In this document: in pieces, positions 4,742 through 62,914 of the stretch | Numbering within the stretch: the first letter of the stretch is position 1 | Layout: each line of letters starts with the position of its first letter | Source: an uncultured Bacteroidales bacterium | Lineage (GTDB): Bacteria; Bacteroidota; Bacteroidia; Bacteroidales; FEN-979 | DNA length: 64,000 bases | NCBI GenBank assembly: GCA_903885595.1 | Contig: CAISJJ010000158.1 | Span: 3,984 to 67,983, forward strand | Direction of reading: 5' to 3' | Made by a program: the position numbers and the translations under genes | Notes under the pieces: generated by a model | What the model saw: the letters and a program-made list of their open reading frames with translations, nothing else | Told to the model about the DNA's origin: nothing | The model's database searches: none

Positions 4742-4754
4742 TCCAAGGAGGCTT

Positions 4755-6943: not shown

Positions 6944-6986
6944 ACAATGATTGCAGAACAATGATATAATGATTGCAGAACAATGA
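6944..6986. repeat. Tandem 22-bp word repeat (acaatgattgcagaacaatgat x2); a third unit resumes at 7145-7164 after the MITE
   Basis: Direct reading: units at 6944-6965 and 6966-6987, with a related 19-bp unit acaatgattgaacaatgat beyond the inserted element. Confidence 0.8.
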
Positions 6987-7140: not shown

Positions 7141-7172
7141 ATGATACAATGATTGAACAATGATCCTGGATT

Positions 7173-9620: not shown

Positions 9621-9800
9621 CCCCGTCCCCGACACTGGCGCCTCCTCCTGATCGAACGACCTCACCCCCGGCCCCCCCCCTTGGAGGGGAGGGGAGAGGT
9701 GAAATGGAACAAACGACTTTATAATGCCAGTTGAAACCTGGCCTGCCAGTAGGCAGGAATCCCCTCCCATCCAAGGGGAGGGGTGCAGGGGAGAGGTCAT
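9610..9800. repeat. Cluster of G/C-run hairpin repeats
   Basis: Direct repeat aacgacctcaccccc at 9610-9624 and 9655-9669. Palindromes ccccggccccccccc-ttgg-aggggaggggagagg (about 9666-9700), cctgcc-agt-aggcagg (about 9740-9755) and cccctcc-catccaa-ggggagggg (9761-9783). Confidence 0.7.
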
Positions 9801-9872
9801 TAATGTCCCAAGGTCATTTAACATGGCAGATGTCATTTTGTGTGAAAAGTAACTCATATAATTTTTGTGCTA

Positions 9873-46506: not shown

Positions 46507-47619
46507 TTATTTTGAGGGCACTGTAAAGATAAATTTGCTTCCCTGACCAAGTGTACTTTCAACACGGATTGTTCCTCCGTTTTTTTCGACAAACTCTTTA
46601 CAAAGGAGCAATCCAAGTCCGGTTCCTTTTTCATTCTCAGTCCCCCTGGTTTTAACGGTTTCACCTGTTTTAAAGAGTTTGACAAGGTTTTCAGGTGTAA
46701 TGCCTGTGCCCGTATCGCTGATGGATATTTCCCACAAATTATCAACCTGGTTGGAATGGATGGTTATTTTCCCTCCTTTAACTGTAAATTTAATCGCATT
46801 GGTCAGCAAATTCCTGATGATGGTTGACATTGAATTGTGGTCGGCATATATAAAGCAATCGGGAGGGGTGAAATTGTAAAGGTGAATTTGTTTCTTTTCA
46901 GCTGTTGATTTCAGCAAATTAAAGTTTTCATATATAATCCGGCCAAGGCTAAGCTCCTCGAAGGCAAACTGGATCTTTCCGGTTTGAATTCGCGACCATT
47001 CAAGCAGGTTCTCCAGCAGTTTGAACGCTGACTGGGCGGAGATCTCGATGTTTTCAATGAACTCTTTCCGTTCCGATTCGCTCAACTCATCATAGTCCTG
47101 CAATAAAAGAGAGGCCAACCCCAGAATTCCGTTAAACGGACTTTTCAGGTCATGAGAAATGATTGACATCAATTTATCCCGGCTGGCATAAAGATCGCGC
47201 AATTGATCTTCCATTCTTTTTTTTTCCCGCAGAGACTCTATCATCTGGTTAAAGGCAATTGAAAAATCCCCCAGGTAGCTGACTTTCTGGTTATAGTCGC
47301 CTTTGGCAATCTGCTGGGTTTGCCAGGTAAGATGTTTTAGATTGGATTGGAGTTGCTTATAATGAGATATTACATAATTCTGCCGGGGCGGCTCAAGGTC
47401 AAGGTTTCCATCTGCAAGTGCATTGATAAACCCGGTACCTTCATGATATTGGCGAATAAATTCTTTAAAACTTCCAATAAATGAGATGTAATCTGGATTT
47501 TCGGTTATATCATCATTAATGCTGTTCAGTAAGGCTAAACCTTCTTCAAGTTCGCCATCCATCAACAGATGAAGTGTTTGGTCTAAACTGGTTATAATTT
47601 GTTCCTCGCTGTTATCCAA
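46507..47619 (-). CDS. Soluble sensor histidine kinase with HAMP-like linker
   Basis: 370 aa with no TM segment. HAMP-like IAKGDYNQKVSYLGDFSIAFNQMIESL, H-box SHDLKSPFNGILG, G-box GTGLGLLLCKEFV. The TTG start is 7 nt after the V4R gene's stop (alternative ATG at 47562). No receiver domain. Confidence 0.85.
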   Translation of the reverse strand: MDNSEEQIITSLDQTLHLLMDGELEEGLALLNSINDDITENPDYISFIGSFKEFIRQYHEGTGFINALADGNLDLEPPRQNYVISHYKQLQSNLKHLTWQTQQIAKGDYNQKVSYLGDFSIAFNQMIESLREKKRMEDQLRDLYASRDKLMSIISHDLKSPFNGILGLASLLLQDYDELSESERKEFIENIEISAQSAFKLLENLLEWSRIQTGKIQFAFEELSLGRIIYENFNLLKSTAEKKQIHLYNFTPPDCFIYADHNSMSTIIRNLLTNAIKFTVKGGKITIHSNQVDNLWEISISDTGTGITPENLVKLFKTGETVKTRGTENEKGTGLGLLLCKEFVEKNGGTIRVESTLGQGSKFIFTVPSK

Positions 47620-47626: not shown

Positions 47627-48181
47627 CTATTCAGGAATCATGTCAACAGTAAACCGGCAGGTACGTTCCCCGGTTCCCCAGCAGTCAATTTCTTTCACTA
47701 CGAACTTCTTATTAGTATAACAATTCATGATTCCTGCAATGAATCCTTCATCATAATCGCAAAACGCAACACCGGAATAGGGGAGCCCTGAACAATCGAG
47801 GTCTTCGGAAACCGCCATAACGAATGAAAATTTCTCCAAATCAGCATTTTCAACCCGTAGCAGTCCGATGCCAAAGTTGAGCAGGGAATCGGTCAGGTTA
47901 GCAACAAATCCATTGAAATCGAGGGTTGTATCGAGTGCATTTTTGCAAAACTCAAATCCGGCTTTAAATCCGGCATCAACAAAAATTTCATTTGTTTTTT
48001 GCGGACCAAATTGTTTTTCAATCACGTCGCGCATGGTATACTGCATCAGCCTGTAAACCGCTACATGTGTCAAGGGGCCAAGCTTAGGACGTCCAAGCTC
48101 GATATCACCCAGATCTTTCCACTTAAAGTTGTATTTAGGCGTAGATTCCATGAGATGGGATTGTAAGTTGTATTGTTCCAA
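47627..48181 (-). CDS. V4R-domain (small hydrophobic ligand-binding) protein
   Basis: C-terminal FCDYDEGFIAGIMNCYTNKKFVVKEIDCWGTGERTCRFTV fits the V4R Cys pattern. The likely start is ATG 48151 (MESTPKYNFKW). Confidence 0.6.
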   Translation of the reverse strand: MEQYNLQSHLMESTPKYNFKWKDLGDIELGRPKLGPLTHVAVYRLMQYTMRDVIEKQFGPQKTNEIFVDAGFKAGFEFCKNALDTTLDFNGFVANLTDSLLNFGIGLLRVENADLEKFSFVMAVSEDLDCSGLPYSGVAFCDYDEGFIAGIMNCYTNKKFVVKEIDCWGTGERTCRFTVDMIPE

Positions 48182-48214: not shown

Positions 48215-50848
48215 TTACATCAGAATATCTTTTTTCAGATTCAGGATTTTTTGACTGTGGTCTTTGCTATAGTCAAACTGTATATCCCCTTTAGCCCTGA
48301 AAAGACGCAGAAAATTAAGATCATACCACCAAACTCCTTTCCCGACCTTTAAACCACTGAGAATATCGATACGGGTATCCCCGTTTGGCAGTGTCTTAAC
48401 TTTGAACTTTGTATTATTCATAATTTTCAGCTGATCAAAAATCACTTGCTTTCCTTCCTCTGTGAACACCGTCACAATCCCTTCTTCGTTTTTCATCATT
48501 TTAAGTTTTCCGATCCGTTCAAAGACAACCGGAGCATCAGCCTTAAACCTGGGGTTATATTTTTCGAATGCCTGCTGAATTTCTCTCCCTGAAATAGCTA
48601 TATTATTGATTCTCATCAGGGCAAAGGTGGCAAAGAGCCCGGAAATCGTTTTCTCACACTTGGTGGCAACCTGTTTGTCATTCTCCTCTTTCAGGGAAAC
48701 AATAACATCGAACTCGGTTTCCAGATTGAGTGTGATATGATCTGTATTCATACCAACCTTATCAGCGTAGGAGCCGGTATAGTAAACATTGTCACTGGCA
48801 TCGAAACTGATTCCCCAACCGGTAAAATTTGCATCCGGGGGAAACCGGCGTGTAGAGATGCTTTGTCCGGCATTGGTAAAGGTGGATGAAAAAATGCAAT
48901 CACCGGTCACCCCGGTCGTATCCTGCGATACCTGGTTGAGCCAGATGAGGCGTCCATCTCCGTTGAATTTTGCAACAAAAACGGATGAATTGGTATCAGC
49001 CAGAGTCATGATTCTCCCAAATGAGATGTTTTTTTCAAATATTCCGCTTACATAAATATTCCCTTTTTGATCAAGGGCAATATTGTATCCCATGCTGTTT
49101 CCTTCGCTGCCGCCCGCAATGGCCCAAACGGGGTTCCCGGCCGGATTAAATTTTGCAAGAAACGCATCATTCTTTCCGTTGGCCGATGATAAGGTCGCAC
49201 CGCCAAAAATGGCTTTTTCACGAAAATATCCGGTCACATAAAAATTCCCTTCGCCATCGATACAATAGTTCTGACGGATATCACCTTTCTGCCCGCCTCC
49301 GGCCTGTACTTTTTCCCAAACGGTAGCCAGGTTATCCTCTTTGTTACGTTCGCTCGCCAGTTCGATGATTCCCGCTTTGGCATTTGCCAGACCCGGCATG
49401 GTACATCCGAACGGGGCATTGACATAGGTTGGATCAGCGATCAGGTATTTCTCTCCCTTATAGGTGATATAATCTCCTGCCTCCTCCGACGGGAACCTGA
49501 CTGCAGTGGCAATATGGCCAGGGTAAACCACTCCAACTACCTTGAACCCTAATAATTCTTTGACCAGGTAGGCAAAAAATACAGCGCGATCATCACAATC
49601 GGAATACTGATAGTAAAAATCCTCCTCCGGAAAAAAATATTTTTCTTCGCCATTGAATTGCTCCTGGTCGGTTTTATATGGAAATCCCTTCTGGACAAAA
49701 TTCAGCAGAAAATCCACCGCATCGGCTGCTGATAATCCGTTTAACTGCGGTTTCAGGGCGTTAAGTATTGATTCCTTTGATTCAGGTGTAAGCGCTGCAT
49801 CAAAATATATATTCAGGTCACAAAGAGGGAAATCCTTGTAGAAAGCAATGGAGTTCAGGTTGTATCTTACTGTTAAGCTGTATTCCCTGTTTTTATATGA
49901 AAGATTGAAGGTGCGCTCAGCAAACTGATCCCCTATGTTAAGGGCATTATACACATTGAGGTCGAAAACGCCTGTGGCGCCGGGAAAATCTTGTTCGTAA
50001 GTATAAATTTGATTTGGGGTGAAGTCTGGCGCATAGAATTTTACCTGGTCAATGAGGAAATACCTTAAGCCAAAGATGGTATTGGACGATGGGAACATGA
50101 GTGCGATCTGATTCTCTGCGTAGGCCACCCGAACCCGGTATCCCGATTTTGTCAGCAGAAACCAGCTGAGCAGCCTTGAGTAATTTTTTGAAGGACTGAT
50201 CAGTTCTGCGGTTTTTTTCACCAGCATATAGTATCCCCAGTCATTCAGGTTCATCAGGGTCCGGGTATCCTGTAGCATTCTGATCAGTCCCGGATAATTT
50301 GCCTGATTGATGCGGTCCCAGAAATCGGCAATGTCGGTGTTGTGAATCTCGTCGGGAAGTCTACCTGAGAGAGTGGAATCATAGAGAATTGACAGTTTTG
50401 CCCCGTAAAAATCGAGGATTATTCCTTCGGGTTCAACAAGTGGTTCTGCCGGTTCCGATTTTATCACCATGGGTAAATTGGGTACAGGCTGGAGCACTGG
50501 CGCGGCAATTCCCTGCAAGGGCTGCACCGGAATCTCTCTCGGAATTTCTGCCGGCCTTACTTTCCGGATTGAGGGATCGAATACAGGCAATGCTGGGGGT
50601 TTAGGCGTGGTATCAGGTTTTATCCCCGTAAAGAGCCTGAATTCAACCCAGTTTTCCCTCAGATAATCGGAAAATTCCTGGTCAATCTCCTCGACATACT
50701 GATCAAATTCCAGTTGATTCTGACGGGTAAACGCATCGAACTCCCGTTGCATAGCCTTTTCAATCTCGCCAAAAGTGGAGTCGGCCTGGCCATAACTTCC
50801 AAGCCCTGCTGATAAAAGGATCATCAGAACAATAAACTTATATTGCAT
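48215..50848 (-). CDS. Secreted protein: Pro-rich linker, transglutaminase-like Cys-His-Asp core, beta-propeller (SBBP-like) repeats
   Basis: ATG 50848 gives the signal peptide MQYKFIVLMILLSAGLGSYGQ. Core YSDCDDRAVFFAYLVKELLGFKVVGVVYPGHIATAV...YLIADPTY. Repeats GNFYVTGYF, GNIYVSGIF, DNVYYTGSY. Confidence 0.6.
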   Translation of the reverse strand: MQYKFIVLMILLSAGLGSYGQADSTFGEIEKAMQREFDAFTRQNQLEFDQYVEEIDQEFSDYLRENWVEFRLFTGIKPDTTPKPPALPVFDPSIRKVRPAEIPREIPVQPLQGIAAPVLQPVPNLPMVIKSEPAEPLVEPEGIILDFYGAKLSILYDSTLSGRLPDEIHNTDIADFWDRINQANYPGLIRMLQDTRTLMNLNDWGYYMLVKKTAELISPSKNYSRLLSWFLLTKSGYRVRVAYAENQIALMFPSSNTIFGLRYFLIDQVKFYAPDFTPNQIYTYEQDFPGATGVFDLNVYNALNIGDQFAERTFNLSYKNREYSLTVRYNLNSIAFYKDFPLCDLNIYFDAALTPESKESILNALKPQLNGLSAADAVDFLLNFVQKGFPYKTDQEQFNGEEKYFFPEEDFYYQYSDCDDRAVFFAYLVKELLGFKVVGVVYPGHIATAVRFPSEEAGDYITYKGEKYLIADPTYVNAPFGCTMPGLANAKAGIIELASERNKEDNLATVWEKVQAGGGQKGDIRQNYCIDGEGNFYVTGYFREKAIFGGATLSSANGKNDAFLAKFNPAGNPVWAIAGGSEGNSMGYNIALDQKGNIYVSGIFEKNISFGRIMTLADTNSSVFVAKFNGDGRLIWLNQVSQDTTGVTGDCIFSSTFTNAGQSISTRRFPPDANFTGWGISFDASDNVYYTGSYADKVGMNTDHITLNLETEFDVIVSLKEENDKQVATKCEKTISGLFATFALMRINNIAISGREIQQAFEKYNPRFKADAPVVFERIGKLKMMKNEEGIVTVFTEEGKQVIFDQLKIMNNTKFKVKTLPNGDTRIDILSGLKVGKGVWWYDLNFLRLFRAKGDIQFDYSKDHSQKILNLKKDILM

Positions 50849-50855
50849 GGGGGCG

Positions 50856-51506
50856 TTATTTCGGGGGATCCTGCAGCAGTTTGTCAACCTGTTCGTCCGT
50901 CTTCTTCAGTTTTTCCTTCAACTCATTGCGGATTGCCTTTTTTGCGATGGCAAAACTCTGTTTCGTTTCATAAAATATTTTGACCTGCACTTCGATCTTG
51001 TTTTCTTTCAGATTGCGGTAAATTTTAAAATTGGGATTGATGTACCCCAGCTGCTGAAGGAAAACACTTTTTGAAGATTGAATAACTTCGGTAATGGAGG
51101 TTGCATCCTGGGTCGATGCCTGCGCATTGGCGAGATTCGCCTTTACGAGTGAACCGATCTGGGTTTCAATAGAGCCTGCCAGCTGGAGTTTGGCCAGCTC
51201 AATGGCCTGGGCTTCAGCCACAGATTTGGATTCTGCCACACCGTTTCCATCAGCATAGATATAGAAGGGGCCGCCTTTTTCATCGGTCTGTAACTGCTTC
51301 ATCCAGGCATCTTCTACCAGTTTATCCAGCGGAAGGGATCCCGGGTTTGTTTTCCAGCCCTCTTTCGAAAGTTTTTTAGCCTCCTTCTGCGCTTCCTTCA
51401 TGGCATCTTCCCTGACCTCTTTCTTGAGTTCTTTCTCGGTTTTCTGGGCGAATGCAACAGAAGCGACAAACATTGCCATTACTGCAAGAATGTAAATTTT
51501 TTTCAT
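50856..51506 (-). CDS. Secreted LPP20-like protein
   Basis: 216 aa with signal peptide MKKIYILAVMAMFVASVAFAQ. ADGNGVAESKSVAEAQAIELAKLQLAGSIETQIGSLV resembles the LPP20 pattern. The stop is 7 nt before the next gene's ATG. Confidence 0.45.
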   Translation of the reverse strand: MKKIYILAVMAMFVASVAFAQKTEKELKKEVREDAMKEAQKEAKKLSKEGWKTNPGSLPLDKLVEDAWMKQLQTDEKGGPFYIYADGNGVAESKSVAEAQAIELAKLQLAGSIETQIGSLVKANLANAQASTQDATSITEVIQSSKSVFLQQLGYINPNFKIYRNLKENKIEVQVKIFYETKQSFAIAKKAIRNELKEKLKKTDEQVDKLLQDPPK

Positions 51507-51760
51507 GGGTAGTTTTTTATTCGTTAATAAATTGATCTTATGAAATAACCAAAATAGCGTGAGCGGGTTGCACCGATGCAGTTAATATGGATATGTCATG
51601 TGATGATTTCTAATGGGTTTTCCTGATGATTGGTTATGACTCGAAATTTCGCAAGACAAATATAGGAATGTAATGGTTGTTATGCAAAAAAAGTTGCCGG
51701 AAAATATTTCATTATGATAAGATTTTTTTAATTTCGGGAAATAATAAAAAATCCAGCGGG

Positions 51761-52975
51761 ATGTTACGCAGCTGTTCGTTTTCGCTTCCATGGCTTAAAG
51801 CCGATTATTTAATCATCAATGTTGTTTTTTTTATTTCCGTTACCCTGATCGGGCTTATCACTTTTAACATTTCTGTTTTTGACCCGGTTAAAAAAGCGCT
51901 CAGCGATTTTAACTTTTCCGACCTGCTCTATTCCAGGCTTAACTCCGGAATGGAAACACTCGATACCAATGTCATTCTGGTTAATATCGGGTATCTTGAC
52001 CGCTCCGGAATTGCCGGTCAGATCAGGATAATCAGGAAGAACGAGCCCAGGGCAATCGGATTTGACGGTTTTTTCTCGGCCAGAAAAGATTCGCTTGCCG
52101 ATTTCAGGTTGAAACAACAATTATCCGACGGCAACATTGTAATGGCCAGTTACCTTACGGGTAAGGATGAACTGGAAGCGAAATTCGACGTGCTCGAAAT
52201 GTCCGATCCCTTTTTCAGTAGTGGCGCCACCGGTTATGTCAATCTTGGAGGGTCGGACCGGATCACCTCGACAGTGCGATATTTCAGTCCGTCTGAAGAT
52301 TTTCGGGGCAGGAGGATTGAACCGCTTTCGGTTGAACTTGTCAAACGATATGATCCGGTTGCCTATCAGAAACTGGAGGAACGCAGGAATGCCAGGGAAC
52401 TTATCAATTACATCGGTAACAGGAGGGCCTTTATCTGCTTCGACGCCACGGAACTCTTTGATTCTCTGACAGACATTTCCATCATGAGGGACAAAATTGT
52501 ATTGATGGGGTATATGGGGGAGTCTTTCAGTGATACAGCGGTGGAGGACATTTACTTTACCCCCATGAACCGGCAGCTGAGTGGCCGTTCGATCCCTGAT
52601 ATGTATGGTGTGGTAATTCATGCCAATATTGTAAATATGATATTAACCCGCAATTATATAAATGTAATGCCCGATTGGCTATGTATCACACTCTCCTTTA
52701 TCCTGTGTTATTTTTACATTTATTACATTACGTTGTTCAGTTACAAAAGACCCATGCTGTTCAATATTACTTTCCCGGTTTTATTACTTTTGCTTAATGT
52801 GCTGATAATCTACTTTTTCTTCCTGCTGTACAAATATTTCAATTACAGTATTAACTCCGGGTATTTTCTTGCACCCATACTTTTATTCAAGACTTTTCAG
52901 ACCTACTATGAACGGATATTGCTCTTCCTAAGCCGCCACATAAAGATCAACAGTGTTTTCATACCTAAACTCTGA
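51761..52975 (+). CDS. Stand-alone CHASE2 domain membrane protein (no cytoplasmic output domain)
   Basis: The track start (TTG at 51677) is probably too far upstream; the ATG at 51761 gives MLRSCSFSLPWLKADYLIINVVFFISVTLIGLI (TM1). CHASE2-like FDPVKKALSDFNFSDL, VILVNIGYLDR, AIGFDGFF, GYVNLG...VRYF, KIVLMGYMG...TPMN, VVIHANIVNMIL. It ends with about three TM helices and stops. Confidence 0.75.
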   Translation: MLRSCSFSLPWLKADYLIINVVFFISVTLIGLITFNISVFDPVKKALSDFNFSDLLYSRLNSGMETLDTNVILVNIGYLDRSGIAGQIRIIRKNEPRAIGFDGFFSARKDSLADFRLKQQLSDGNIVMASYLTGKDELEAKFDVLEMSDPFFSSGATGYVNLGGSDRITSTVRYFSPSEDFRGRRIEPLSVELVKRYDPVAYQKLEERRNARELINYIGNRRAFICFDATELFDSLTDISIMRDKIVLMGYMGESFSDTAVEDIYFTPMNRQLSGRSIPDMYGVVIHANIVNMILTRNYINVMPDWLCITLSFILCYFYIYYITLFSYKRPMLFNITFPVLLLLLNVLIIYFFFLLYKYFNYSINSGYFLAPILLFKTFQTYYERILLFLSRHIKINSVFIPKL

Positions 52976-52979
52976 TATT

Positions 52980-53753
52980 ATGAAAAGCCCATTCCTTGTC
53001 TTTTTAATCCTGTTTTCATCTGCAGGCGCAGCTTTTTGCCAATGTGCCGGGTTTAAAATTTATCGCACATCGGGGGAGGTTTATCTTATGCCCGGCCCTG
53101 TGAAAGGGACTGCACTTAAGAACAGGATCCTGAATGAACAATCGGTGCTGAATGTTGAAGCCGGAGGAAATGTAATCTTACTGAGCGGAAGTGATAAAGC
53201 ACTGCGAATTACTAAACCCGCTAAATATACCTACGCTGACATCCATACTATGTGTCAGCAGAATCAGACTTCGCTTACAAAGGAGTATATAAAATACGTC
53301 GCACAAACGATTACCGAAAAAGAAGAACCTATGACAGCTATGGTTATTAAAGGAGCGGTATACCGGACCAAGGAGATTTTCGAAAGGACCGACATGATCC
53401 TTCCGGCTGATTCTTCGGTAATTTCCACAGAAACCATCCTGTTTGCCTGGCACCCAACGCCCGGTGTTGCTTCAAAATATCTTAAAATTTATGAAAACGG
53501 CGTAAAGGAGATTTATTCAAGACTACTCTCCGATACCACCATTGTTCTTCAAGCTGAACTGTTTTTACCGCAGAAACTGTATTTCTGGCTGGTCACGTCA
53601 AATCAACAGCCCACAAACGATGAGGTGAGATTCAACTTTGTGCGCAGTAATCCCGATTGGAAAACTGAATTTCTCAACCTGGATGACCAATTGATGAAAG
53701 AGCTCGAAAACGAGATCAATGCAACAGAGAAAAAGTTAAGAGAGGGAAAATGA
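52980..53753 (+). CDS. Secreted protein of unknown function, translationally coupled to the CHASE2 gene
   Basis: The ATG at 52980 is 4 nt after the CHASE2 stop. Signal peptide MKSPFLVFLILFSSAGAAFCQ. The C-terminal half (TILFAWHPTPGVASKYLKIYENG...LFLPQKLYFWLVTS) is loosely reminiscent of DUF928, which is unverified. Confidence 0.55.
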   Translation: MKSPFLVFLILFSSAGAAFCQCAGFKIYRTSGEVYLMPGPVKGTALKNRILNEQSVLNVEAGGNVILLSGSDKALRITKPAKYTYADIHTMCQQNQTSLTKEYIKYVAQTITEKEEPMTAMVIKGAVYRTKEIFERTDMILPADSSVISTETILFAWHPTPGVASKYLKIYENGVKEIYSRLLSDTTIVLQAELFLPQKLYFWLVTSNQQPTNDEVRFNFVRSNPDWKTEFLNLDDQLMKELENEINATEKKLREGK

Positions 53754-53763
53754 GATTCCCCGC

Positions 53764-55554
53764 CTAAAACAAAATCCCGATTTTAAATATAGAATAGATT
53801 GAAATGTCTTTAAGCCATTCTTCTTCCTTGTAAAGTGAAGGTATGATACTGGTAAATGAAGTAGTATATTGATAACTTAACGACATTGCAAATGAACTTG
53901 TTACCCAGAGATCGAGGTCGATCCCGAAATTAAAACTGCCGTTTGCGAATGACCACTCGCTAAATGAACCAATGCTGTCAATAGCACTGCTGTTTTGATA
54001 AAATGTGGGGTTATAGGCGATAGTGATAAATGGTTTTGGGTTAAAACGGAGCATCTTTACAATATTGGCCTGGATGCCAAGATCGAAACCGGGAACAACG
54101 TATCTGCGGTATTTATATGTGGCATCTTCTGAAAGATCCTGGATGAGATTCACAGAGAACTGGTATTTACAGAAAACAACGGACTTGCTTTTTGAACTGC
54201 CGGCATTCCCCACACTCAGACCGAAATTTTTGTTAAAGTCGCCAAATCCAAACGGGAAACAAACACTAAACCGTACAGGTTTGATCTTATTGATTGATGC
54301 CATGAAAAAAAGTGAATTTTGTTCATCCCCGCCCATTTTTGAACCACCGCCTCCGCCTTGCGAGGGAGATAACCGACCACCTACGGCCTGCCGGAGCAAA
54401 ACCGGCGTTTTACCTGTCATCAGGTAATTGTTAAACTCTGCAAACCTGCTCTCCCTGTTATGACTGGCCTCGACGAAATTATACCAGGCTGCATTATTTT
54501 CCGCACAATTCATTTCCGGTAAAACAGCCTGCTTTCTCAGGTTATAAAAAGAGCTGTTCATCGCCAATAAATTTGGATTTATCGTTTTGGCACGACTGTC
54601 AATATCAGGGATTTCCCCTTTGAATTTCAGGAAAAGGCTTTTAGCGTCTTCTTCATTATTTTTAAGGCAGGAACTCCTTGCCTGTAATAAAGTATAGGCT
54701 GTACGAAAATACATGGCCTCGATATAGTTGGGATCAAAGGATAAAGCTTCCGTTATTGAATAATAAATTTTGGCATTGATGGCATCTTTAGCGGTAAGAT
54801 CTTCCATGCCTGCTGTTTTATAACCCTGAACGGCGCCATCGCAAATTTTCTTGTATGCATCGAATGAAGTGGCGCCAAAATAGGTGTTATTTGAGGAGTT
54901 GTCTGTTTTTGCAAAATCAACGGCATCTTTTGAAAATTTTACATTTTTGATGACGGCTGGCTCCTGGAAACTGAATCCCGATGTTCGGGCATGCACCGTA
55001 CCAATTACCTTTCCCTCCATATTAATGGCCGGACCTCCCAGGCTCGCCGGAGTAATAGTTGCCGAGGTCTGAATGGTACTGTCCTTTGCATTGCTGCTGA
55101 TGAGGCCCCAGGTTACCATTATTGATCCTGCTATCTGACCGTCACCCGCGTATCCGAATATCAGAGTTTCATCCCCGGCATGAATTGTTTCGGGATCGGC
55201 AAACTCCAGGGGTTTTAAGGTACAGTCGATGGCTTTGATAATGGCAACATCCGTTATGGGATTTGACCAGATCACAGTGCCGTAATAGGATTTGCTTTCA
55301 TCCTGTGAATAAAAAACAATACCATTCATATCCTTGACCACCTGGTAGCTTGTTATGACCAGGTTCCCATCTCCGACCACATAACCGGTTCCCAGGTTAA
55401 ACGTGGTCTCATCAAAATAAAATGGCATGTTGAATGCAAAAACCCGAACGATGGATTCTTTTGTTTCATCGATAAGGGCAACTTTCGATTGAGACTGAAG
55501 CATTTGTCCGCAAAGGCAAAACAACGCTGATAAAAACAGTAACTTTCTTTTCAT
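53764..55554 (-). CDS. Trypsin-fold pseudoprotease fused to a putative C-terminal outer-membrane beta-barrel
   Basis: 596 aa with a signal peptide. S1C-like blocks GTGYVVGDGNLVITSYQVV (Gln where the catalytic His is expected), DVAIIKA (Asp retained) and TITPASLGGPAINMEGKVIGTV (Leu where the GNSGGP Ser is expected). The last ~180 aa have an alternating pattern and end in the aromatic KIGILF. Confidence 0.65.
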   Translation of the reverse strand: MKRKLLFLSALFCLCGQMLQSQSKVALIDETKESIVRVFAFNMPFYFDETTFNLGTGYVVGDGNLVITSYQVVKDMNGIVFYSQDESKSYYGTVIWSNPITDVAIIKAIDCTLKPLEFADPETIHAGDETLIFGYAGDGQIAGSIMVTWGLISSNAKDSTIQTSATITPASLGGPAINMEGKVIGTVHARTSGFSFQEPAVIKNVKFSKDAVDFAKTDNSSNNTYFGATSFDAYKKICDGAVQGYKTAGMEDLTAKDAINAKIYYSITEALSFDPNYIEAMYFRTAYTLLQARSSCLKNNEEDAKSLFLKFKGEIPDIDSRAKTINPNLLAMNSSFYNLRKQAVLPEMNCAENNAAWYNFVEASHNRESRFAEFNNYLMTGKTPVLLRQAVGGRLSPSQGGGGGSKMGGDEQNSLFFMASINKIKPVRFSVCFPFGFGDFNKNFGLSVGNAGSSKSKSVVFCKYQFSVNLIQDLSEDATYKYRRYVVPGFDLGIQANIVKMLRFNPKPFITIAYNPTFYQNSSAIDSIGSFSEWSFANGSFNFGIDLDLWVTSSFAMSLSYQYTTSFTSIIPSLYKEEEWLKDISIYSIFKIGILF

Positions 55555-56000
55555 AAATATCAGATTTGGCGTTCGTTATATTATTGAGCTTTATTTGAAA
55601 TAATCAGGATGTCTTTCAAATTAAACAGGCAACAGTGTATATCGTAAATCATATATTCCTGTCATCATTGTGCCTTAAACTGATGATTTATAATAAGATT
55701 CCTTTTCGGATGGGCCTCCTTACTGTCATATCATCACCCTTCTGATAAGGAAATCAGCAGAACGAATATGAAACAAATTTATATTAATTTTTGATAAACC
55801 ATAATTTTACCTAAAAAAATCTTCATTTTTTTTTTAGTATTTAGGTTTTTTTACTAAATTGCCGATGTGTTTTAGTTGGGTTTAAGTGGGTAATTTTAAT
55901 GAAAGTTTGCGCTGGCAATCCTCTCCCGATGAATGATGCTTTTCTTCTGATGGAGATCAGGTTATAAAGTTTCTGCATGGATTTTTAAAAACATGAACCG

Positions 56001-57932
56001 ATGAAAACAATTACATTTCTGTTTTTTATCATTGCTTCATTGCTGCCGGCAACACTGCCGGCCCAGGAACGTGGAATGACGCCGGATGCCCTTCCTGACA
56101 TAAAAATGCTCGATACCCTGTATACCCGGCGCTCAGCCCTGCTGATCGGCGCCAGTGACTATAATAACGGATTTGATACACTGAAGGGCGTTGTTTCAGA
56201 TATTGGAACAGTTAAGGCGTTGCTCGACAGCTTAGGGTTTACCGTTAAAGTAAAGATGAATCCTCCCGACAAGAAAGCATTTGATGATGCGTTCGGTGAA
56301 TTTATTGCAGAATATGGGCAAGACCAGGAAAGTTGCCTGATTTTTTATTTTGCAGGTCATGGAATAACCAGGAATGTAAATGCAGTGAAGAAAAGCTATC
56401 TGCTCGGCGTTAATTGCCCGGAGTTTGACAAGAACAAATCGGGTTTTTTAGCTTCAGCGATTCCCCTTGATTATTTCGAAAATTATGCGAAGGAAATTGC
56501 CTGCAAACATGCACTTTTCATTTTTGATGCTTGCTTTTCGGGCGCTATTTTTGACCGGCGCAGGGGCAATAATGCACCCGAACTCATAAGTTATAAAACC
56601 ACGCTTAAGGTCAGGCAATTTATTACCAGTGGCTCCGCAGACGAGAAGGTACCCGATAATAGCCGGTTTTGCGACCAGCTGGTATTCGGTCTTAAAGGCG
56701 AAGCCGATAAAAATGATGATGGATATGTGCTTGGATCTGAGTTATTTGCATTCCTGGAGGAAAAGGTGGTAAATATATCAAAAGGTACTCAACATCCCCA
56801 ATATGGGAAAATGAGCGAACAGGACTTTGACAAGGGGGACTTTGTATTTTGCCTGAATAAAACCAGCTCAACAACATTCGGCCGGCTTGAGATAAAGACG
56901 GTTACCGAGGGTTCACTTTTCATTGATAACAGGTTTAACCGAAAGATAACCTATTCAGACTCCTTGATCATTGTTGATGATCTTACTTCGGGAAATCATA
57001 CCATCAGGATTTCAGGTGACGGACCTGATGACGCACCGGTTGAAAAAATCGTGCGAATCTATCCCAATACAACCATCCCGCTTTCATTTGCCAAAACCCG
57101 GACCGGTGCGTCACCTCACTTTCCCGACATGACACTTTTGGAAGGGGTGACCTTCTCAATGGGCAGCAATGATGGCCCGGCTGATGAAAAACCTGTTCAC
57201 CCGGTTACCCTCAGTAATTTTACCATGGGGAAGTATGAGGTAACTGTGAACCAGTTCAAGAAATTCATTGATGATACCGCCTATCAGACCGATGCCGAAA
57301 AAAGTGGCGGAAGCTGGGTTTGGACCGGGAGCCTATGGGAAAAACGAAACGGGGTCAACTGGAAATGCGATGCAGCCGGGAATGTACTGGTCGCCGCCAA
57401 TTACAACCAACCCGTGATCCATGTGAGCTGGAACGACGCAAATGAATATTGCAAATGGCTTAGTAAAAAAACAGGTAAAACATACCGGCTCCCAACAGAG
57501 GCTGAATGGGAATTTGCTGCCGGCGGACCAAAACGTTTAAAATATAGCTGGGGTAATACCGACCCAAAAGGAAAGGCGGGTGGGAATGTGGCAGATATCT
57601 CGGCAAAAAAGCTGGGGATCTCATTTATCTGGAATGGTTACGATGACAAGTTCGGAATGACAGCTCCTGTTGGAAGTTTCAGTCCGAATGAGTTTGGGTT
57701 ATACGACATGACTGGAAATGTTTGGGAGTGGTGCAGCGATTGGTACGGAGCTGATTTTTACGCAAAGAGTGCGGCAGAAAATCCATTGGGCCCTTCAACT
57801 GGCGTTTATCGCGTGTTAAGGGGCGGTTCCTGCGTTGACCAGCCAACCAGCCAGCGGGTTACAGAACGGTTATGGGTCGAGCCATCCGGGAAAAAACGCT
57901 GTGCCGGCTTTCGGGTAGTAAGAACCGACTAA
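56001..57932 (+). CDS. Exported caspase-family (C14) protease fused to a PEGA-like domain and an FGE/SUMF1-type domain
   Basis: 643 aa with signal peptide MKTITFLFFIIASLLPATLPAQ. Caspase His and Cys motifs IFYFAGHG and LFIFDACFSG. FGE-type motifs RLPTEAEWEFAAGG, GLYDMTGNVWEWCSDWY, RVLRGGSC. Confidence 0.8.
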   Translation: MKTITFLFFIIASLLPATLPAQERGMTPDALPDIKMLDTLYTRRSALLIGASDYNNGFDTLKGVVSDIGTVKALLDSLGFTVKVKMNPPDKKAFDDAFGEFIAEYGQDQESCLIFYFAGHGITRNVNAVKKSYLLGVNCPEFDKNKSGFLASAIPLDYFENYAKEIACKHALFIFDACFSGAIFDRRRGNNAPELISYKTTLKVRQFITSGSADEKVPDNSRFCDQLVFGLKGEADKNDDGYVLGSELFAFLEEKVVNISKGTQHPQYGKMSEQDFDKGDFVFCLNKTSSTTFGRLEIKTVTEGSLFIDNRFNRKITYSDSLIIVDDLTSGNHTIRISGDGPDDAPVEKIVRIYPNTTIPLSFAKTRTGASPHFPDMTLLEGVTFSMGSNDGPADEKPVHPVTLSNFTMGKYEVTVNQFKKFIDDTAYQTDAEKSGGSWVWTGSLWEKRNGVNWKCDAAGNVLVAANYNQPVIHVSWNDANEYCKWLSKKTGKTYRLPTEAEWEFAAGGPKRLKYSWGNTDPKGKAGGNVADISAKKLGISFIWNGYDDKFGMTAPVGSFSPNEFGLYDMTGNVWEWCSDWYGADFYAKSAAENPLGPSTGVYRVLRGGSCVDQPTSQRVTERLWVEPSGKKRCAGFRVVRTD

Positions 57933-58067
57933 TCCTTCCCCCGGATTCATAAGTCCCTGACTTCGAAAATAATTTCATTTTATCCAATCCCTGAATCCAT
58001 GAACATCGATGCCAGCCTTGTTAACACTAACGGTCGATAATATTATGTGTGTTCCATTTGATCATTC

Positions 58068-59621
58068 ATGTCAAAATTTTCACCAATGAAGATCTCTTTA
58101 AAAGCGCTGCTGATTTTAACCTGCTTTCTGATCAGCCAACAAGGCGTATTTTCCCAATCCCCCCCGTCTTATGTTTCAGCGGAAAAGCGTAAACTTCAAT
58201 ATCCCGATGAGAAATACCTCACAGGTTTTGCCTCAGCTGTTATCCGGAAGACCGATAAGGTTGAAGAGGTACAGAAAACCCTGCTCGAAAATGCAAAGAC
58301 CTATCTGGTCCAATCGATCAGCACCAGGATTTCATCATCAGCCACGCTCAACACAGAGAATCATAATACAAAAACCCTGGAAATTTTCCGTCAGGTCAGT
58401 ACTTCTTATGCCCAGGCAGACCTGACCGGACTGAAAGTAAATGAATATTATGATACTAAAAAGAAGGAAGCCTATGCATTCGTACATCTTAACATTCAGG
58501 ATTTTCTGTCGTCAACACAAAACACTTTGATCCTGGAATCTACCCAGCTGTCGAAAAAACTTGGGACTGCCAGTCAGCTTATGAAAGCAGGCAACCGCGG
58601 AGAAGCTTTAAAAACCTACCTTGATTGTTTTCCGCTCTTACGGGAGATGGAAAGCCAGGTTGCCATAGTTTTAACATTAGGGAAGCCCGAAATTGCCACG
58701 CAGTACGGAGCATTCAGCGATTCCGTTTCAAGGGCTGTTTCTTTACTCCGGACAGGACCCAGGAACAGCATGAATGATCTGTGTTTTTTTATTGCCGATG
58801 GGATTAAACAACAGATTCCTGAAAGTTTTAAAGACAGAACCATCAGGTTGGGCAGTTTTACATACATGAATACAGGAATGGGGAGTAAATTTTCAGCTCA
58901 CCTTGCTGCTTCGCTCCAACCGAAACTTACCGCTGAGGGATTTGCTATTTACACACCCGATCAGTCGGCAAAAGATAACAGGTTCCCATGGGTGCTTTCT
59001 GGTACATATTGGCTCGATGGGAAGAACCTTAAGGTTATCGCTAATCTGAATAATGAAAAAACAGGTATAACGATTGCGAGCATTGAGGAGTTTTTTCCCC
59101 TCACCTGGCTGACTGAAAATGGTATAGAATATCTTCCCGGAAATTATCAATCGGCAATAAAACTGGAGAAGGAACTCAGTTCAAATGAAATTGTAAACAG
59201 TGGGTTAATGGTGAAATTATGGACCAATAAAGGGATGGAAAACCCGGTTTATAAACAGGGTGAAAAGATGCAGGTTTACGTCCAGGCCGATCAGCCATGT
59301 TTCCTCAGGCTTATTTATTTTACGGCTGATGGAAACAAATGGCTTTTAAAAGATAGCTGGTACCTGGATGAGACAAAAATCAACAAACCATACCTTTTAC
59401 CTGGATCATATACCTGTACTCCGCCGTTTGGCGCCGAGATTCTTCAATTGGTCGCCCAGACCGAACCATTCAAAAAACTTGATACAGAGGTATCCGGAGG
59501 TAATACAATTATCCTTGGCGACGACCATTCAGCCATTGAGATCACCCGGGGTATGAAAGCTGAAAAACCCAACCTGCTTATAGCTGAAAAACGAATAAGT
59601 ATTACCACCCTGGAAGAATAG
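58068..59621 (+). CDS. Exported protein with LPP20-like N-terminal region and DUF4384-like C-terminal domain
   Basis: 517 aa with a signal peptide or lipoprotein-like leader (LILTCFLISQQGVFSQ). N-region YLTGFASAV...AKTYLVQSISTRISS. C-domain VKLWTNKGMENPVYKQGEKMQVYVQADQPCFLRLIYFTADGNKWLL...PPFGAEILQLVAQ. Confidence 0.55.
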   Translation: MSKFSPMKISLKALLILTCFLISQQGVFSQSPPSYVSAEKRKLQYPDEKYLTGFASAVIRKTDKVEEVQKTLLENAKTYLVQSISTRISSSATLNTENHNTKTLEIFRQVSTSYAQADLTGLKVNEYYDTKKKEAYAFVHLNIQDFLSSTQNTLILESTQLSKKLGTASQLMKAGNRGEALKTYLDCFPLLREMESQVAIVLTLGKPEIATQYGAFSDSVSRAVSLLRTGPRNSMNDLCFFIADGIKQQIPESFKDRTIRLGSFTYMNTGMGSKFSAHLAASLQPKLTAEGFAIYTPDQSAKDNRFPWVLSGTYWLDGKNLKVIANLNNEKTGITIASIEEFFPLTWLTENGIEYLPGNYQSAIKLEKELSSNEIVNSGLMVKLWTNKGMENPVYKQGEKMQVYVQADQPCFLRLIYFTADGNKWLLKDSWYLDETKINKPYLLPGSYTCTPPFGAEILQLVAQTEPFKKLDTEVSGGNTIILGDDHSAIEITRGMKAEKPNLLIAEKRISITTLEE

Positions 59622-59638: not shown

Positions 59639-62600
59639 TTACCTGCTTATAATCAATTTCTTAGTGATCCTTTCTGTCCCTGTTTGAATACGGAGAAAGT
59701 AAACCCCGTCGGGCAAATGGCTGAGGTTGATCTGCAATGGTCCCTGCTGGTTTGAGCCGGCAGATGTTAAACCGGTCACCTGCATACCAATGGAGTTGTA
59801 TACCATCAGGGTTAATTCTTTGGATCCGGCTGTTGGCAGGGATAGATTAAATAATCCCTTTCCCGGGTTGGGATAGATCCGCATATCTTCTTCAGTAGCT
59901 TCATTCAGTGTATTTCCGTTTTCTCCGGTGCTTTTTTGCAAACTGATGTCCAGTCTGCGGGCGTCGAAATCAAACCATTCGCAGGGGGTGGGAGAGGCCG
60001 ACCATGAAACATCAGGTGTGCCGTCGGCAACTGAATTAAAAACAAGATTGCTTAAGGTGCCATTCAGCGAAATTCCATGGGCATCGGCGGCCCAAAGTAA
60101 TGCCAGAGTTCCGGGCTGAGGATTGGCAATGGTCACATCTTCGATTCCGGCATACCAGTTATTGGCCTCCACAAAGGATAACTTTGCGGGATCATATTGA
60201 ATACTGAACTGGAAAGCGCCTGATTCACGGATTGATGAAACTGTTATCGGAACAATAATTCGTCCCTTTGAGGTCTTTTTTGGCGTTTCGAGGGTGATTG
60301 TTCCATCTGAACCTGATTTTAACTGATTGAGCGGATCGTTTGAAAGCCCGGGAGCATCCAGGATTGTCCAGGTATAGGAGGCATTGGCATCGCCATAGAT
60401 GATGCCGTTAAAATTACGGGTGACATCATTGCCACTGACAGTGACTGCCTGATTTTCAAAAAGCCAATCGCCAACAGGAAAAGAGGTGACAATGGTTATA
60501 ATCCGCTTTTTAATGAGCAGCACATCACTGGCCGAGAGCGAACCACTTGCATTGACGTCTCCGCATGCCAGGAAAATTCCGGATAAGGGGGCAATGTTGC
60601 CAATATGTTTCTTGAACAACAGGACATCGGCAGCAGAAACTCCACCCCATGGCTTATCGGTCGTAGCTTCAACAGTATAATTTCCATCTGTGATTCCCGT
60701 AAAGGAATAGTTGCCTGACACAGATGTGCTGACCGTGGCAATCACGGTTCCGCCCGAGTTTTTCAATTTCACGGGGATGTTGTGCATCGGGGTATTGGCG
60801 GCGTTGGGATAGGTTATGGCGCCGCTGATGGCATGTCCGGTGGCACCTCCTTCACATTCGATGCTGGCAGCCCAGCCGATCCTGGTTACTGAATTATCGG
60901 AGGTGAATTTAAAGGTCAGCGAACCGCTGGCATTCGAGGCTGTGATTGTTCCGGGTGAAGCGGTTCCGTTAAACGGGCTGCCGGTGATTTGGGGCGCACT
61001 TACTGAAGAACCATTGTAAATATACAGGTAATCATAGCCGCTCTCTGTTTCAAACTGTGAAAAGCTGACCTTGAGCATGGCTCCCGAAGTGGCGGGATTG
61101 ATGGTCATTACTTTATTTTCGCTGTTATTGTAGTTGGCGTCGGGGCCTCCCGAATCGTAAAAATTTCCGGCACAGGTTGTTATGTTCCCATTGGCCATGA
61201 TGATATTCTGTGCAACTGTGATATAGCCTTGTTTCAGCAGGGTTTGTGAATCAACGCCATCTGAAATGGTCAGTGAAACATCATAAACGCCTGCCGCCGC
61301 ATAAACAACCACAGGATTTGGATCAGTAGAGGTGGCCGGATTTCCTCCCGGGAAACTCCATTGCCAGCTTACCGGACTGCCACACGATAAATCGGTAAAA
61401 TACACCGGTTCACTGAAAGTCACATTCACTTTATCGGCAGTAAATTCAGGGTTCAATCCACCATAAGGGTAAAGCTGGACATTCAGGATGGTGGTATTCA
61501 GGTCGGTTGCACTTACATTCTGAATGGTTTTCGTGCGGTAACAACCAGCAGAAAAGGTAAGGTTGTATGATCCTGCCTTGATCGGCCGGTAATAGTCTCC
61601 GGTCACCGCCGATGAATATACGTGTGTGCTGTCCTGATCATGTCCGGCGATAAATACTTTTGCATGCAAAGGATTGCCTGTAATCGAATCGGTAATAATG
61701 CCATTGATGCCATAGCGTGACTGATCGATGTAGTTCAGCAGCGAGCGGTAATTGTAATTCCAGTGGGAGATCAACTGCGTGGCAGGCAATAATTTCGTGT
61801 TTGATAACTCAATGGTAACTTCCCGGCACTGCCTGAAAATGTTCATATAATCCTGCCGGCCTCCATGTACTTCATACCATGCGTAACCATTGGTAATTCC
61901 ATTGTCCCATTCATTCATGTATCCTCCCCCGCTGTGAACATGCACAGTATCTGCATACTGACGGCCGGTAAAAATCCACCAGTTGTTATCAGGATGTAAC
62001 CGTGGCCAGGTATCCCAGGGATAATTATACACCTCGGCTCCGCCATGAAAATTGGCCGACATTACAAAATCACGGATACCGGCAAAATTCATAAAAGCCT
62101 CCGTTTCCACCTGCCACGCTTCTCCATCGGGGTGGGGGCCCTCCTGTGCATCGGGATAGTTGCGGTTCATGTCAACACCGTTGGCATTGCCCCGGGTAGC
62201 TCCGTTTACAGTATTGTTACCGCCATTGTAAGTTCCATCAGGATTGGCCAATGGGTTGATCCATATTTCCGTGTTGTTCAGCATGTTGGTTACACGGCTG
62301 TCGGTGCCGTAATTAAGCAGGAGATAATCCATCAGATGAAGCATCAGCACATAACCGGTTGTTTCATCCCCGTGAATGGAAGAGGTATAGAAGAACTCTG
62401 GTTCCCCTTCATCCGTGGCTACATTATCAGATATTTTTGCTGCAAGAAGTAACCTTCCATCGGTCGACATCCCAATGGTGTCGATCTTGCACAAAGCAGG
62501 ATAATTGGCCTGGAACTGGGCCATCAAACTGAGGTAGGCAGTATAGGTGGGATAAAAATCCCAGACCGTCCGGTCTTTTAAGTTGACGTTATCCAACATC

Positions 62601-62914
62601 CGCGGATAAATGAGATCGCCGGGATTTGGCAGGATTTTATATTCATATCCTGACTGAAGAAAACCGGTGAACTGCTTTCGGTTCGCATAGGCCCAAACGG
62701 TATCACCCTTGACATTATCGATGGAGATAATGCGGGTCAGTTTGCTGATTTCTTTTTTATCACGGATCATGAAACGAAAATATCGCTCAGACTTTCCTGA
62801 AAACAGTTGCGCTGGCAATGAGTTATCGCCGGCATTGGAGTTTGATTCCTGGGCATTCAGCAAGGAGCCTAAGAAAACAAGGACAAGGAGCAGAAGTGTA
62901 CGATGTGCGTTCAA
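59639..62914 (-). CDS. T9SS-secreted M14 zinc carboxypeptidase with PKD, CUB-like, CarboxypepD_reg-like, dockerin-like and cohesin-like domains
   Basis: 1091 aa. TTG is the only available start and gives (M)NAHRTLLLLVLVFLGSLLNAQ. M14 motifs SSIHGDETTGY, NRNYP, ANFHGGAEVYNYPWD. PKD WQWSFPGGNPATS...YDVSLTISDG. CUB-like CAGNFYDSGGPDANY...YDYLYIYNG. Dockerin-like GDVNASGSLSASDVLLIKKRI. Cohesin-like IIVPITVSS...AFQFSIQYDPAKLSF. CTD IYPNPGKGLFNLSL...DGVYFLRIQTG. Confidence 0.85.
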   Translation of the reverse strand: MNAHRTLLLLVLVFLGSLLNAQESNSNAGDNSLPAQLFSGKSERYFRFMIRDKKEISKLTRIISIDNVKGDTVWAYANRKQFTGFLQSGYEYKILPNPGDLIYPRMLDNVNLKDRTVWDFYPTYTAYLSLMAQFQANYPALCKIDTIGMSTDGRLLLAAKISDNVATDEGEPEFFYTSSIHGDETTGYVLMLHLMDYLLLNYGTDSRVTNMLNNTEIWINPLANPDGTYNGGNNTVNGATRGNANGVDMNRNYPDAQEGPHPDGEAWQVETEAFMNFAGIRDFVMSANFHGGAEVYNYPWDTWPRLHPDNNWWIFTGRQYADTVHVHSGGGYMNEWDNGITNGYAWYEVHGGRQDYMNIFRQCREVTIELSNTKLLPATQLISHWNYNYRSLLNYIDQSRYGINGIITDSITGNPLHAKVFIAGHDQDSTHVYSSAVTGDYYRPIKAGSYNLTFSAGCYRTKTIQNVSATDLNTTILNVQLYPYGGLNPEFTADKVNVTFSEPVYFTDLSCGSPVSWQWSFPGGNPATSTDPNPVVVYAAAGVYDVSLTISDGVDSQTLLKQGYITVAQNIIMANGNITTCAGNFYDSGGPDANYNNSENKVMTINPATSGAMLKVSFSQFETESGYDYLYIYNGSSVSAPQITGSPFNGTASPGTITASNASGSLTFKFTSDNSVTRIGWAASIECEGGATGHAISGAITYPNAANTPMHNIPVKLKNSGGTVIATVSTSVSGNYSFTGITDGNYTVEATTDKPWGGVSAADVLLFKKHIGNIAPLSGIFLACGDVNASGSLSASDVLLIKKRIITIVTSFPVGDWLFENQAVTVSGNDVTRNFNGIIYGDANASYTWTILDAPGLSNDPLNQLKSGSDGTITLETPKKTSKGRIIVPITVSSIRESGAFQFSIQYDPAKLSFVEANNWYAGIEDVTIANPQPGTLALLWAADAHGISLNGTLSNLVFNSVADGTPDVSWSASPTPCEWFDFDARRLDISLQKSTGENGNTLNEATEEDMRIYPNPGKGLFNLSLPTAGSKELTLMVYNSIGMQVTGLTSAGSNQQGPLQINLSHLPDGVYFLRIQTGTERITKKLIISR

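Follow-up and report, generated by a model that had tools for sequence, protein, structure and literature searches.

What might a caspase-fold protease, a CHASE2 membrane protein and a putative transglutaminase-fold cysteine enzyme be doing side by side in the envelope of a Bacteroidales bacterium? The question is raised by nine neighboring open reading frames (ORFs), named here A to I, in a stretch of 64,000 nucleotides (nt) (hereafter the window) of contig CAISJJ010000158.1 from an uncultured member of this order. All nine ORFs are real and lie where a first-pass annotation, made from the letters of the sequence, had placed them (Table 1). Six of the families, A, B, C, D, F and G, form a conserved set of exported or membrane proteins in a group of uncultured Bacteroidales. 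The search for conservation was anchored first on D (21 loci retrieved) and secondly on A (80 metagenome loci); the ORFs of the retrieved loci were compared by tblastn and all-against-all clustering, and lineages were dereplicated. A, B, C and D occur together with a caspase gene in 11 dereplicated lineages in addition to the window, and G accompanies them in 10 of the 11. The neighborhood proposed at first reading is therefore real in its core, in that caspase-FGE, stand-alone CHASE2, D, A and LPP20-type proteins co-occur across lineages and gene orders; the protease-like E, the V4R protein H and the kinase I drop out of it.

The conserved set is arranged in three gene orders among the related loci. 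With arrowheads for the direction of transcription, type I is F G J> <A <B C D> (e.g. L003, L006-L009, L012, L023-L033), where J is a second caspase that is present in most relatives and missing from the window. Type II, <A <B C D> <E F G>, is the order of the window and of L022, and in type III (L021, L043/44/69/75) the genes C D G F A B are co-directional and are followed by a gene of family f8. The flanking genes are unrelated between the order types and vary even within type I. Between the window and type III loci the identity is 40% for A, 57% for B, 56% for C, 39% for D, 45% for F and 34% for G. The same content, kept in different orders and between different flanks at only 34-57% identity, argues for functional coupling rather than for chance or simple inheritance. 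Caspase genes accompany both C-D and B-A, and the set seems to consist of two modules, C-D(-caspase-FGE) and B-A(-G/caspase), each of which is also found without the other.

C is the immediate neighbor of D in all 36 loci that hold D, with a spacing of about -11 to +7 nt where coordinates were checked. The CHASE2 domain of C scores 70.8 bits (cut-off 26.3), and Pfam shows no second domain beside it. Hydrophobic segments were located by hydropathy at residues 12-43 and 302-361, with a weaker one judged by eye. No output domain (kinase, cyclase or GGDEF/EAL) was found in C, and the chain ends about 15-40 residues past the last hydrophobic segment; the initial description of an output-less CHASE2 protein followed after 4 nt by a predicted secreted one thus holds. 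For D, the AlphaFold2 (AF2) model, with a predicted local distance difference test score (pLDDT) of 73, consists of two beta-sandwich domains, the second of them FN3-like, and a C-terminal helix, and Foldseek gave weak matches to generic FN3 or Ig tandems. In an alignment of 33 sequences, Q21-C22 and C92 are invariant, and with two invariant cysteines a disulfide is possible. The most conserved stretch, EPxTAMVIKGAVYR (TAMVIKGAVYR being invariant), sits in a linker that AF2 left unplaced (pLDDT < 50), and may be a strand for docking or a site of cleavage at Lys/Arg. Searches of Pfam, NCBIfam and PDB found no relative of D; a FecR-like or DUF928-like nature, guessed by eye, was rejected, as a Pfam scan of 33 family members gave no match to either at E <= 10.

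The D family comprises 47 clusters at 90% identity, the named ones all belonging to Bacteroidota or to Bacteroidales metagenome-assembled genomes, and it is present in 15 of 185,579 species genomes. When 1.84 billion representatives were searched with a profile, the family grew to 1067 matches at E <= 1e-3, and ten of the wider members that were scanned gave no informative Pfam match. In a cultured Cytophagales strain, Bernardetia sp. Wsw4-3y2, a D-like gene comes directly after a stand-alone CHASE2 gene, and one distant locus, L106, carries a triad in the order CHASE2, D-like, caspase-FGE, whose members are 31%, 26% and 27% identical to C, D and F, respectively. In L106 (positions 1-10059) the triad is preceded by Prok-RING/UPF0547 and UQ_con (E2-like) proteins and has three STAND-type ATPase genes downstream, a setting that looks defense-island-like. 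Two other distant D-like loci (L107 and L108) are uninformative because they are too short or without CHASE2.

The caspase domain of F matches Peptidase_C14 at 6.9e-18 (65.6 bits, cut-off 21.4). Its dyad, which had been read as intact, consists of H120 (FAGHG) and C178 (DACFSG), and both are invariant in 15 F and J caspases. All 15 also have a canonical EF-hand-like loop, DxNxDGYVxxxE, which suggests Ca2+ dependence, and judging from this motif the F and J orthocaspases are probably Ca2+-dependent; in F the putative Ca2+-binding loop, DKNDDGYVLGSE, lies inside the caspase domain at residues 236-247. The FGE-like domain of F matches solved FGEs at 3e-41, the PorK structure 9mzu at 2.8e-16, and the GldK/PorK model of NCBIfam (TIGR03525) at 2.5e-32, the last being a partial match with 112.7 bits against a cut-off of 350. 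The catalytic Cys pair of FGEs was looked for at the positions, after the RGGS motif, that we take to be those of the pair. In alignment with T. curvata and human FGE, the first Cys position of F is filled (GGSC) and the second is a gap or Thr, and sibling F proteins read GGSWKYNP, with neither Cys. Since the conserved catalytic pair is lacking, the domain is read as a binding module and not as an enzyme. A PEGA-like part of F, also proposed at first, had to be given up: there was no match at E <= 1 in four J proteins and the isolated F segment, or at E <= 0.1 in full-length F. More generally, searches with hidden Markov models (HMMs) recovered most of the domains that had been named by eye (CHASE2, Peptidase_C14, FGE-sulfatase, DUF4384, Trypsin_2, SBBP, V4R, HisKA and HATPase_c, with HAMP weak), and failed to recover PEGA, DUF928 and Transglut_core; NCBIfam added nothing decisive for the window proteins.

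In type I loci the functions of F are split between two proteins, F having a caspase domain, a low-complexity linker and a short FGE-like domain, and J a caspase domain and a beta-domain of about 70 amino acids (aa). In the window and in type III loci J is missing, and a single protein combines the caspase domain and the beta-domain with a long FGE-like domain. G is kept beside the caspase genes in related loci. The DUF4384 part of its predicted LPP20-like/DUF4384-like architecture is secure (8.7e-8 in the window, and found in all six G proteins scanned), whereas the LPP20 match (5.5e-5) is just under the Pfam cut-off and was obtained with the window copy only. A comparison of the B and G profiles gave 7% in hhalign, over one motif. 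F and G of the window are 42-47% and 40-44% identical to those of type I, compared with 51-78% for A-D over the same comparisons, whereas among type I lineages F and G diverge in step with A-D. This suggests that the F-G module of the window was replaced or strongly diverged, and yet it still stands beside A-D. The architecture of F in the window is that of the distant type III loci, which suggests a module replacement along with the loss of J.

The transglutaminase-like Cys-His-Asp core claimed for A is supported by the conservation of the triad and by its modeled structure, not by Pfam, which reports SBBP alone at E <= 0.1 and no transglutaminase-like family. Across three alignments (8, 47 and 38 sequences), C418 and H445 never vary, and D472 does so rarely or not at all. 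The AF2 model of residues 1-510, computed from an alignment that was built from database matches, has a pLDDT of 83 and a predicted template modeling (TM) score of 0.82, and Foldseek matches it best to the PDB structures of LapG, putative cysteine proteases of Bacteroidota, PNGase, TG2 and factor XIII. The top matches, which also include 3isr and 3kd4, are all of the transglutaminase/papain-like fold. A profile search of PDB sequences with the N-terminal half of A found nothing; as the Pfam search fails as well, the assignment of the core rests on the structure model. The propeller resembles that of CylK (profile match). The A family contains at least 1195 clusters, and its N-terminal half is without a Pfam or NCBIfam model.

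B is the most conserved member of the set, with 55-89% identity between loci, and is rich in Lys and Gln. Pfam gave no match with B alone, and the LPP20-like nature claimed for it was confirmed by comparing profiles: a B-only profile matches that of bona fide LPP20 neighbors of A-like genes (hhalign 94%, E = 1e-7). One of these neighbors, an f7 protein, matches Pfam LPP20 at 8.4e-12, and the combined profile with B matches H. pylori Lpp20 (5ok8) at 3.5e-4. The leader of B, ...VAFAQ-K, has no lipobox Cys, which the f7-type neighbors do carry. A gene of LPP20 type (B or the lipoprotein family f7) adjoins the A-like gene in 34 of the 66 A-bearing lineages. In four loci (L078, L081, L083 and L095), short A-like proteins of about 490-505 aa, with no propeller, come after a bona fide LPP20 lipoprotein, and the surrounding genes (cytochrome c, DsbA, GGDEF, DctM) look proteobacterial; the pairing of LPP20 with the N-terminal part of A would accordingly be much older than the Bacteroidales cluster. 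Both B and, weakly, the N-terminus of G fall into the LPP20 family, which includes H. pylori Lpp20 and the flagellar protein FlgP. However, they differ from these in having leaders of the signal peptidase I type that end in Gln, in standing in no flagellar context and in having a fixed A-like partner.

Export and transmembrane calls were made from hydropathy and leader shape. On this basis signal leaders are predicted for A, B, D, E, F and G, and transmembrane segments for C. The earlier view that every non-kinase gene product of the neighborhood is exported or membrane-bound fits A to G and fails for the V4R protein H, in which no export signal was seen. The predicted leaders of A, B, D, E, F and G stop just before Gln (..YGQ, ..FAQ, ..FCQ, ..QSQ, ..PAQ and ..FSQ, respectively), in agreement with the "Q-rule" for signal peptidase I substrates of Bacteroidota. 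As had been stated for the neighborhood, the conserved set contains no NTPase, nuclease or response regulator.

We tentatively propose, as a plausible reading to which we would not yet commit ourselves, that the cluster is a conserved system of regulated proteolysis in the cell envelope, built of two modules, for which we infer partners, substrates, cue and outcome as follows. In the first module, the inner-membrane protein C and its obligate exported partner D would form a receptor facing the periplasm. Because C is without cytoplasmic output, any signal must be passed on at the periplasmic side, and the likely recipients would be the secreted orthocaspases (F here, F and J in the relatives). 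The non-catalytic FGE-like domain, which has the C-type-lectin fold, and the small beta-domains would probably bind the targets. In the second module, A would act as an exported, LapG-like cysteine enzyme of the transglutaminase fold with a beta-propeller, and the LPP20-family proteins B and G would serve it as a scaffold, an anchor or a substrate. The outcome would be that proteins in the periplasm or associated with the outer membrane are cleaved or cross-linked in response to a cue, in other words a remodeling of the envelope or cell surface. A functional link of C-D with the orthocaspases is supported by the caspase-CHASE2 fusions known from cyanobacteria (PMC2853523, PMC3501461). Possible but rather unlikely in our estimation is a stronger statement, according to which the CHASE2-D receptor steers both the secreted Ca2+-dependent orthocaspases and the LapG-like enzyme within the periplasm, without a cytoplasmic second messenger, and the triad of CHASE2 protein, small secreted protein and caspase-fold protease is an ancient unit with variants in Bacteroidota and cyanobacteria.

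Several observations weigh against regulated envelope proteolysis by one two-module system. C-D occurs alone or without A and B in 10 lineages (alone in L002/L015, L004/L016, L014 and L017-L020), B-A-G-caspase occurs without C-D in L031, L035, L037 and L090, and the L106 triad is without A, B or G. As the window-type loci all belong to a single clade of uncultured Bacteroidales, their conservation may partly be inherited gene order. The export of the members is read from hydropathy and leader shape, and D found no informative homologue in the searches described above. Finally, A matches LapG only weakly in Foldseek (E = 6e-3, TM score 0.5 on the target), and the fold cannot tell protease from transglutaminase or amidase activity.

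The nearest functional parallel is the LapD-LapG-LapA system of Pseudomonas and Legionella. LapG, the best structural match of A, is a periplasmic Ca2+-dependent cysteine protease of the transglutaminase fold with a Cys-His-Asp triad, and it is governed by the periplasmic domain of an inner-membrane receptor, to which the present cluster can be likened. However, no LapD (HAMP-GGDEF-EAL), LapA-type adhesin or type I secretion system is found in the cluster, and A differs from LapG in an N-terminal extension of about 380 aa, the SBBP propeller, an extra C-terminal domain and the lack of a transglutaminase-like Pfam match. With an output-less CHASE2 protein as the membrane partner, inside-out control by cyclic di-GMP of the Lap kind is impossible. 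F itself resembles the prokaryotic caspase-FGE fusions in architecture and in its intact His/Cys dyad; 4.9% of prokaryotic metacaspases combine Peptidase_C14 with FGE-sulfatase (DUF323) (PMC3501461), Trichodesmium is known to have caspase-CHASE2 fusions (PMC2853523), and both architectures have been catalogued since 2010-2012. Unlike those fusions, F is predicted to be secreted, and would thus share its side of the membrane with the CHASE2 domain, which is here a separate protein; the extra beta-domain, the EF-hand-like loop and the fixed linkage to D, A, B and G are further differences.

A parallel with cyanobacterial CHAT/CHASE2/DUF928/ShlB clusters, which the first-pass annotation had offered, was found at at least one locus, on plasmid pn1 of Nostoc sp. 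UHCC 0926 (L110 5694-11947), with no ShlB-type gene there. An AAA_35-CHASE2 protein (991 aa), a DUF928 protein (226 aa) and a TPR-CHAT protein (843 aa) are encoded adjacently, so that a CHASE2 membrane protein, a small secreted protein and a caspase-fold protease stand side by side as in the window, and a CHASE2-plus-DUF928 neighborhood is also mentioned in PMC5587647. The Nostoc locus differs in that its protease is of the TPR-CHAT type, without a reported Peptidase_C14/FGE match, its CHASE2 protein carries an N-terminal AAA_35 ATPase, equivalents of A, B and G were not seen, and D shows no HMM relation to DUF928.

In the first alternative, also unlikely on the whole, the cluster would act from the periplasm in defense against invaders or in programmed death. 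The lectin-like FGE domain of the caspase, or CHASE2-D, would sense a molecule of a phage, predator or competitor in the envelope and set the orthocaspase and the LapG-like enzyme to destroying envelope proteins, with abortive infection or altruistic lysis as the outcome. Caspase and FGS (FGE-like) domains do recur as effector and sensor parts of predicted conflict systems (PMC8195603), and the NTPase-regulated conflict systems of Kaur, Burroughs, Iyer and Aravind likewise unite a caspase effector with a lectin-like FGS domain. The present cluster, however, is without the STAND, AP-GTPase or other NTPase, the effector-associated adaptor domains and the retroelement of those systems, and all of its parts are predicted to be exported. 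The L106 triad lies between E2/RING-like genes and three STAND-type ATPase genes, whereas the window-type loci lie among housekeeping genes and not mobile elements. F and G of the window were replaced or diverged much faster than A-D, as expected under conflict; yet among sibling lineages they keep pace with A-D, and B, A and C are strongly conserved. A Bacteroidota locus with putatively secreted metacaspases and a CHASE2 family protein, genomic island 15 of Psychroflexus torquis, was tied in passing to possible cell death by its authors (PMC3914696). It can be likened to the cluster by domain content only, being a 35-kilobase, transposase-flanked island with WD40-metacaspases and a LytTR regulator. 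Against a defense role also stand the lack of NTPase, nuclease, TIR domain and diversity-generating retroelement in the conserved set, and the absence of a meaningful PADLOC match: no defined defense system was matched by the members, which gave generic caspase, trypsin and kinase-domain matches only.

A second alternative, to which we give a low probability, would be that C-D(-caspase-FGE) and B-A(-G/caspase) are two unrelated modules, neighbors by descent without a joint function. The separate occurrences listed above (C-D loci, B-A with G and other caspases, and the L106 triad) are what it would predict, and the LPP20-plus-A pair extends far outside this clade. It does not explain readily why the modules remain together across three rearrangements, why in type III they are interleaved in a single co-directional run, C D G F A B, why the divergent F-G pair of the window is again beside A-D, or why caspase genes go with both modules.

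The B-A side has a second conserved type of cluster, found in L031, L035 and L090 (e.g. L090 4800-12742), which comprises B, f8, f19, f14, a CARDB-caspase and A, without CHASE2-D; G is present in two of these three loci. Its f8 protein is about 320 aa long, f19 is lipoprotein-like, f14 is a membrane protein with a weak DUF5683 match, and the CARDB-caspase has about 570 aa. The idea that f8 is a short G paralogue was rejected (hhalign 2%); in type III loci, too, f8 comes after B.

The flagellar disc protein FlgP is a relative of LPP20, and the caspase-fold protein PorU matures cargo of the type IX secretion system (T9SS). An assembly machinery for a periplasmic or outer-membrane-associated structure, in which LPP20-type proteins polymerize, the FGE-like domain acts as in the T9SS ring protein PorK/GldK and the enzymes mature or cross-link subunits, would suit the GldK/PorK matches of F, the LPP20 affinity of B and G, the T9SS cargo genes next door and the Lys- and Gln-rich composition of B, but is very improbable, as the GldK score is far under its cut-off while true FGEs match far better, no T9SS core gene is linked, and B and G, without a lipobox Cys, are not lipoproteins here.

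The linkage points to proteolytic signaling confined to the periplasm. CHASE2 is a widespread sensor domain without a known ligand, and bacterial caspase homologues have very few assigned functions; the fixed link of an output-less CHASE2 protein, a Pfam-less D family (about 1000 clusters at 50% identity) and secreted caspases offers a testable handle on both. Two large families without a Pfam or NCBIfam match are defined here, namely the N-terminal/transglutaminase-fold module of A and the D family. Similar CHASE2/caspase-fold clusters have been noted in passing only, and the literature searched holds no description of the six-gene set, the C-D-caspase triad, the LPP20-A pair or their function. 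In this respect the earlier remark that no joint function had been described stands, with the qualification that CHASE2-plus-metacaspase clusters with signal peptides had been noted for Psychroflexus torquis (PMC3914696).

Table 1. Window coordinates of the genes, domains, sites and flanking genes.
Feature	Position	Strand	Description
A	48215..50848	-	877 aa; predicted signal leader, helical and alpha/beta N-terminal region
A, transglutaminase-fold (LapG-like) cysteine-enzyme domain	49349-49711		about residues 380-500; predicted from AF2 model and Foldseek
A, Cys418 codon	49595-49597		putative triad
A, His445 codon	49514-49516		putative triad
A, Asp472 codon	49433-49435		putative triad
A, SBBP beta-propeller	~48749-49321		Pfam SBBP; followed by a conserved C-terminal domain
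B	50856..51506	-	216 aa; predicted exported, Lys-rich, divergent LPP20-family protein; 7 nt upstream of A
C	51761..52975	+	404 aa; stand-alone CHASE2 membrane protein; Pfam CHASE2 1.7e-19; transmembrane segment ~12-43, C-terminal transmembrane block ~302-390
C, CHASE2 domain	51995-52705		residues 79-315
D	52980..53753	+	257 aa; predicted exported; 4 nt downstream of C
D, conserved motif	53325-53366		residues 116-129
E	53764..55554	-	596 aa; trypsin-fold pseudo-protease; Pfam Trypsin_2 2.4e-18; between D and F in this lineage only
E, Gln71	55342-55344		His position in alignment to DegP; Asp102 kept
E, Leu172	55039-55041		Ser position in alignment to DegP
F	56001..57932	+	643 aa; predicted signal leader
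F, orthocaspase domain	56127-56855		
F, His120	56358-56360		dyad
F, Cys178	56532-56534		dyad
F, EF-hand-like loop	56706-56741		
F, beta-domain	56886-57098		~70 aa; common with caspase J of relatives
F, FGE-sulfatase-like domain	57123-57923		Pfam 4.5e-64
G	58068..59621	+	517 aa (public gene calls begin six codons later, 511 aa); predicted exported
G, LPP20-like region	58197-58490		weak; N-terminal
G, DUF4384	59247-59468		
H	47627-48181	-	V4R protein; gap of 33 nt to A; no export signal
I	46507-47619	-	soluble HisKA/HATPase_c kinase; 7-nt gap; no export signal; HAMP weak
Flanking gene	43689-45590		LamG and DUF4842 protein
Flanking gene	59639-62914		1091-aa T9SS cargo protein: Peptidase_M14, CarboxypepD_reg, PKD, CUB, dockerin, cohesin, Por_Secre_tail
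Flanking gene	63204-63962		further PKD/Por_Secre_tail protein

E had been correctly described as having Gln and Leu at the catalytic His and Ser positions, but its inclusion as a component of the system was mistaken, as it is absent from every related cluster except L022, the relative of the window at about 90% identity. Its family is small, with about 10 full-length relatives and a conserved C-terminal domain of about 170 aa that ends in ...GILF. Most of these proteins retain His (TNxHV) and Ser (GNSGGP; e.g. P0170, P0172 and P0174-P0177) and they adjoin unrelated genes; one at 95% identity shares Gln and Leu, and one at 57% has lost the Ser as well. Occurring only in the window and L022, and having catalytically intact relatives in unrelated contexts, E was rejected as a member, and by these comparisons it is judged to be a protease gene that was inactivated recently and, in this lineage, came to be inserted between D and F.

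A scan with a sigma-70 promoter and terminator model showed no enrichment relative to shuffles, the sigma-70 model being ill-suited to Bacteroidota promoters. H and I are not conserved members either, their counterparts being limited to L022, where H was detected; the kinases near the related clusters of L003 and L007 were rejected as counterparts of I, being unrelated Reg_prop/Y_Y_Y kinases. Both genes lie directly downstream of A on the same strand, and in this lineage only they may be co-transcribed with B-A.

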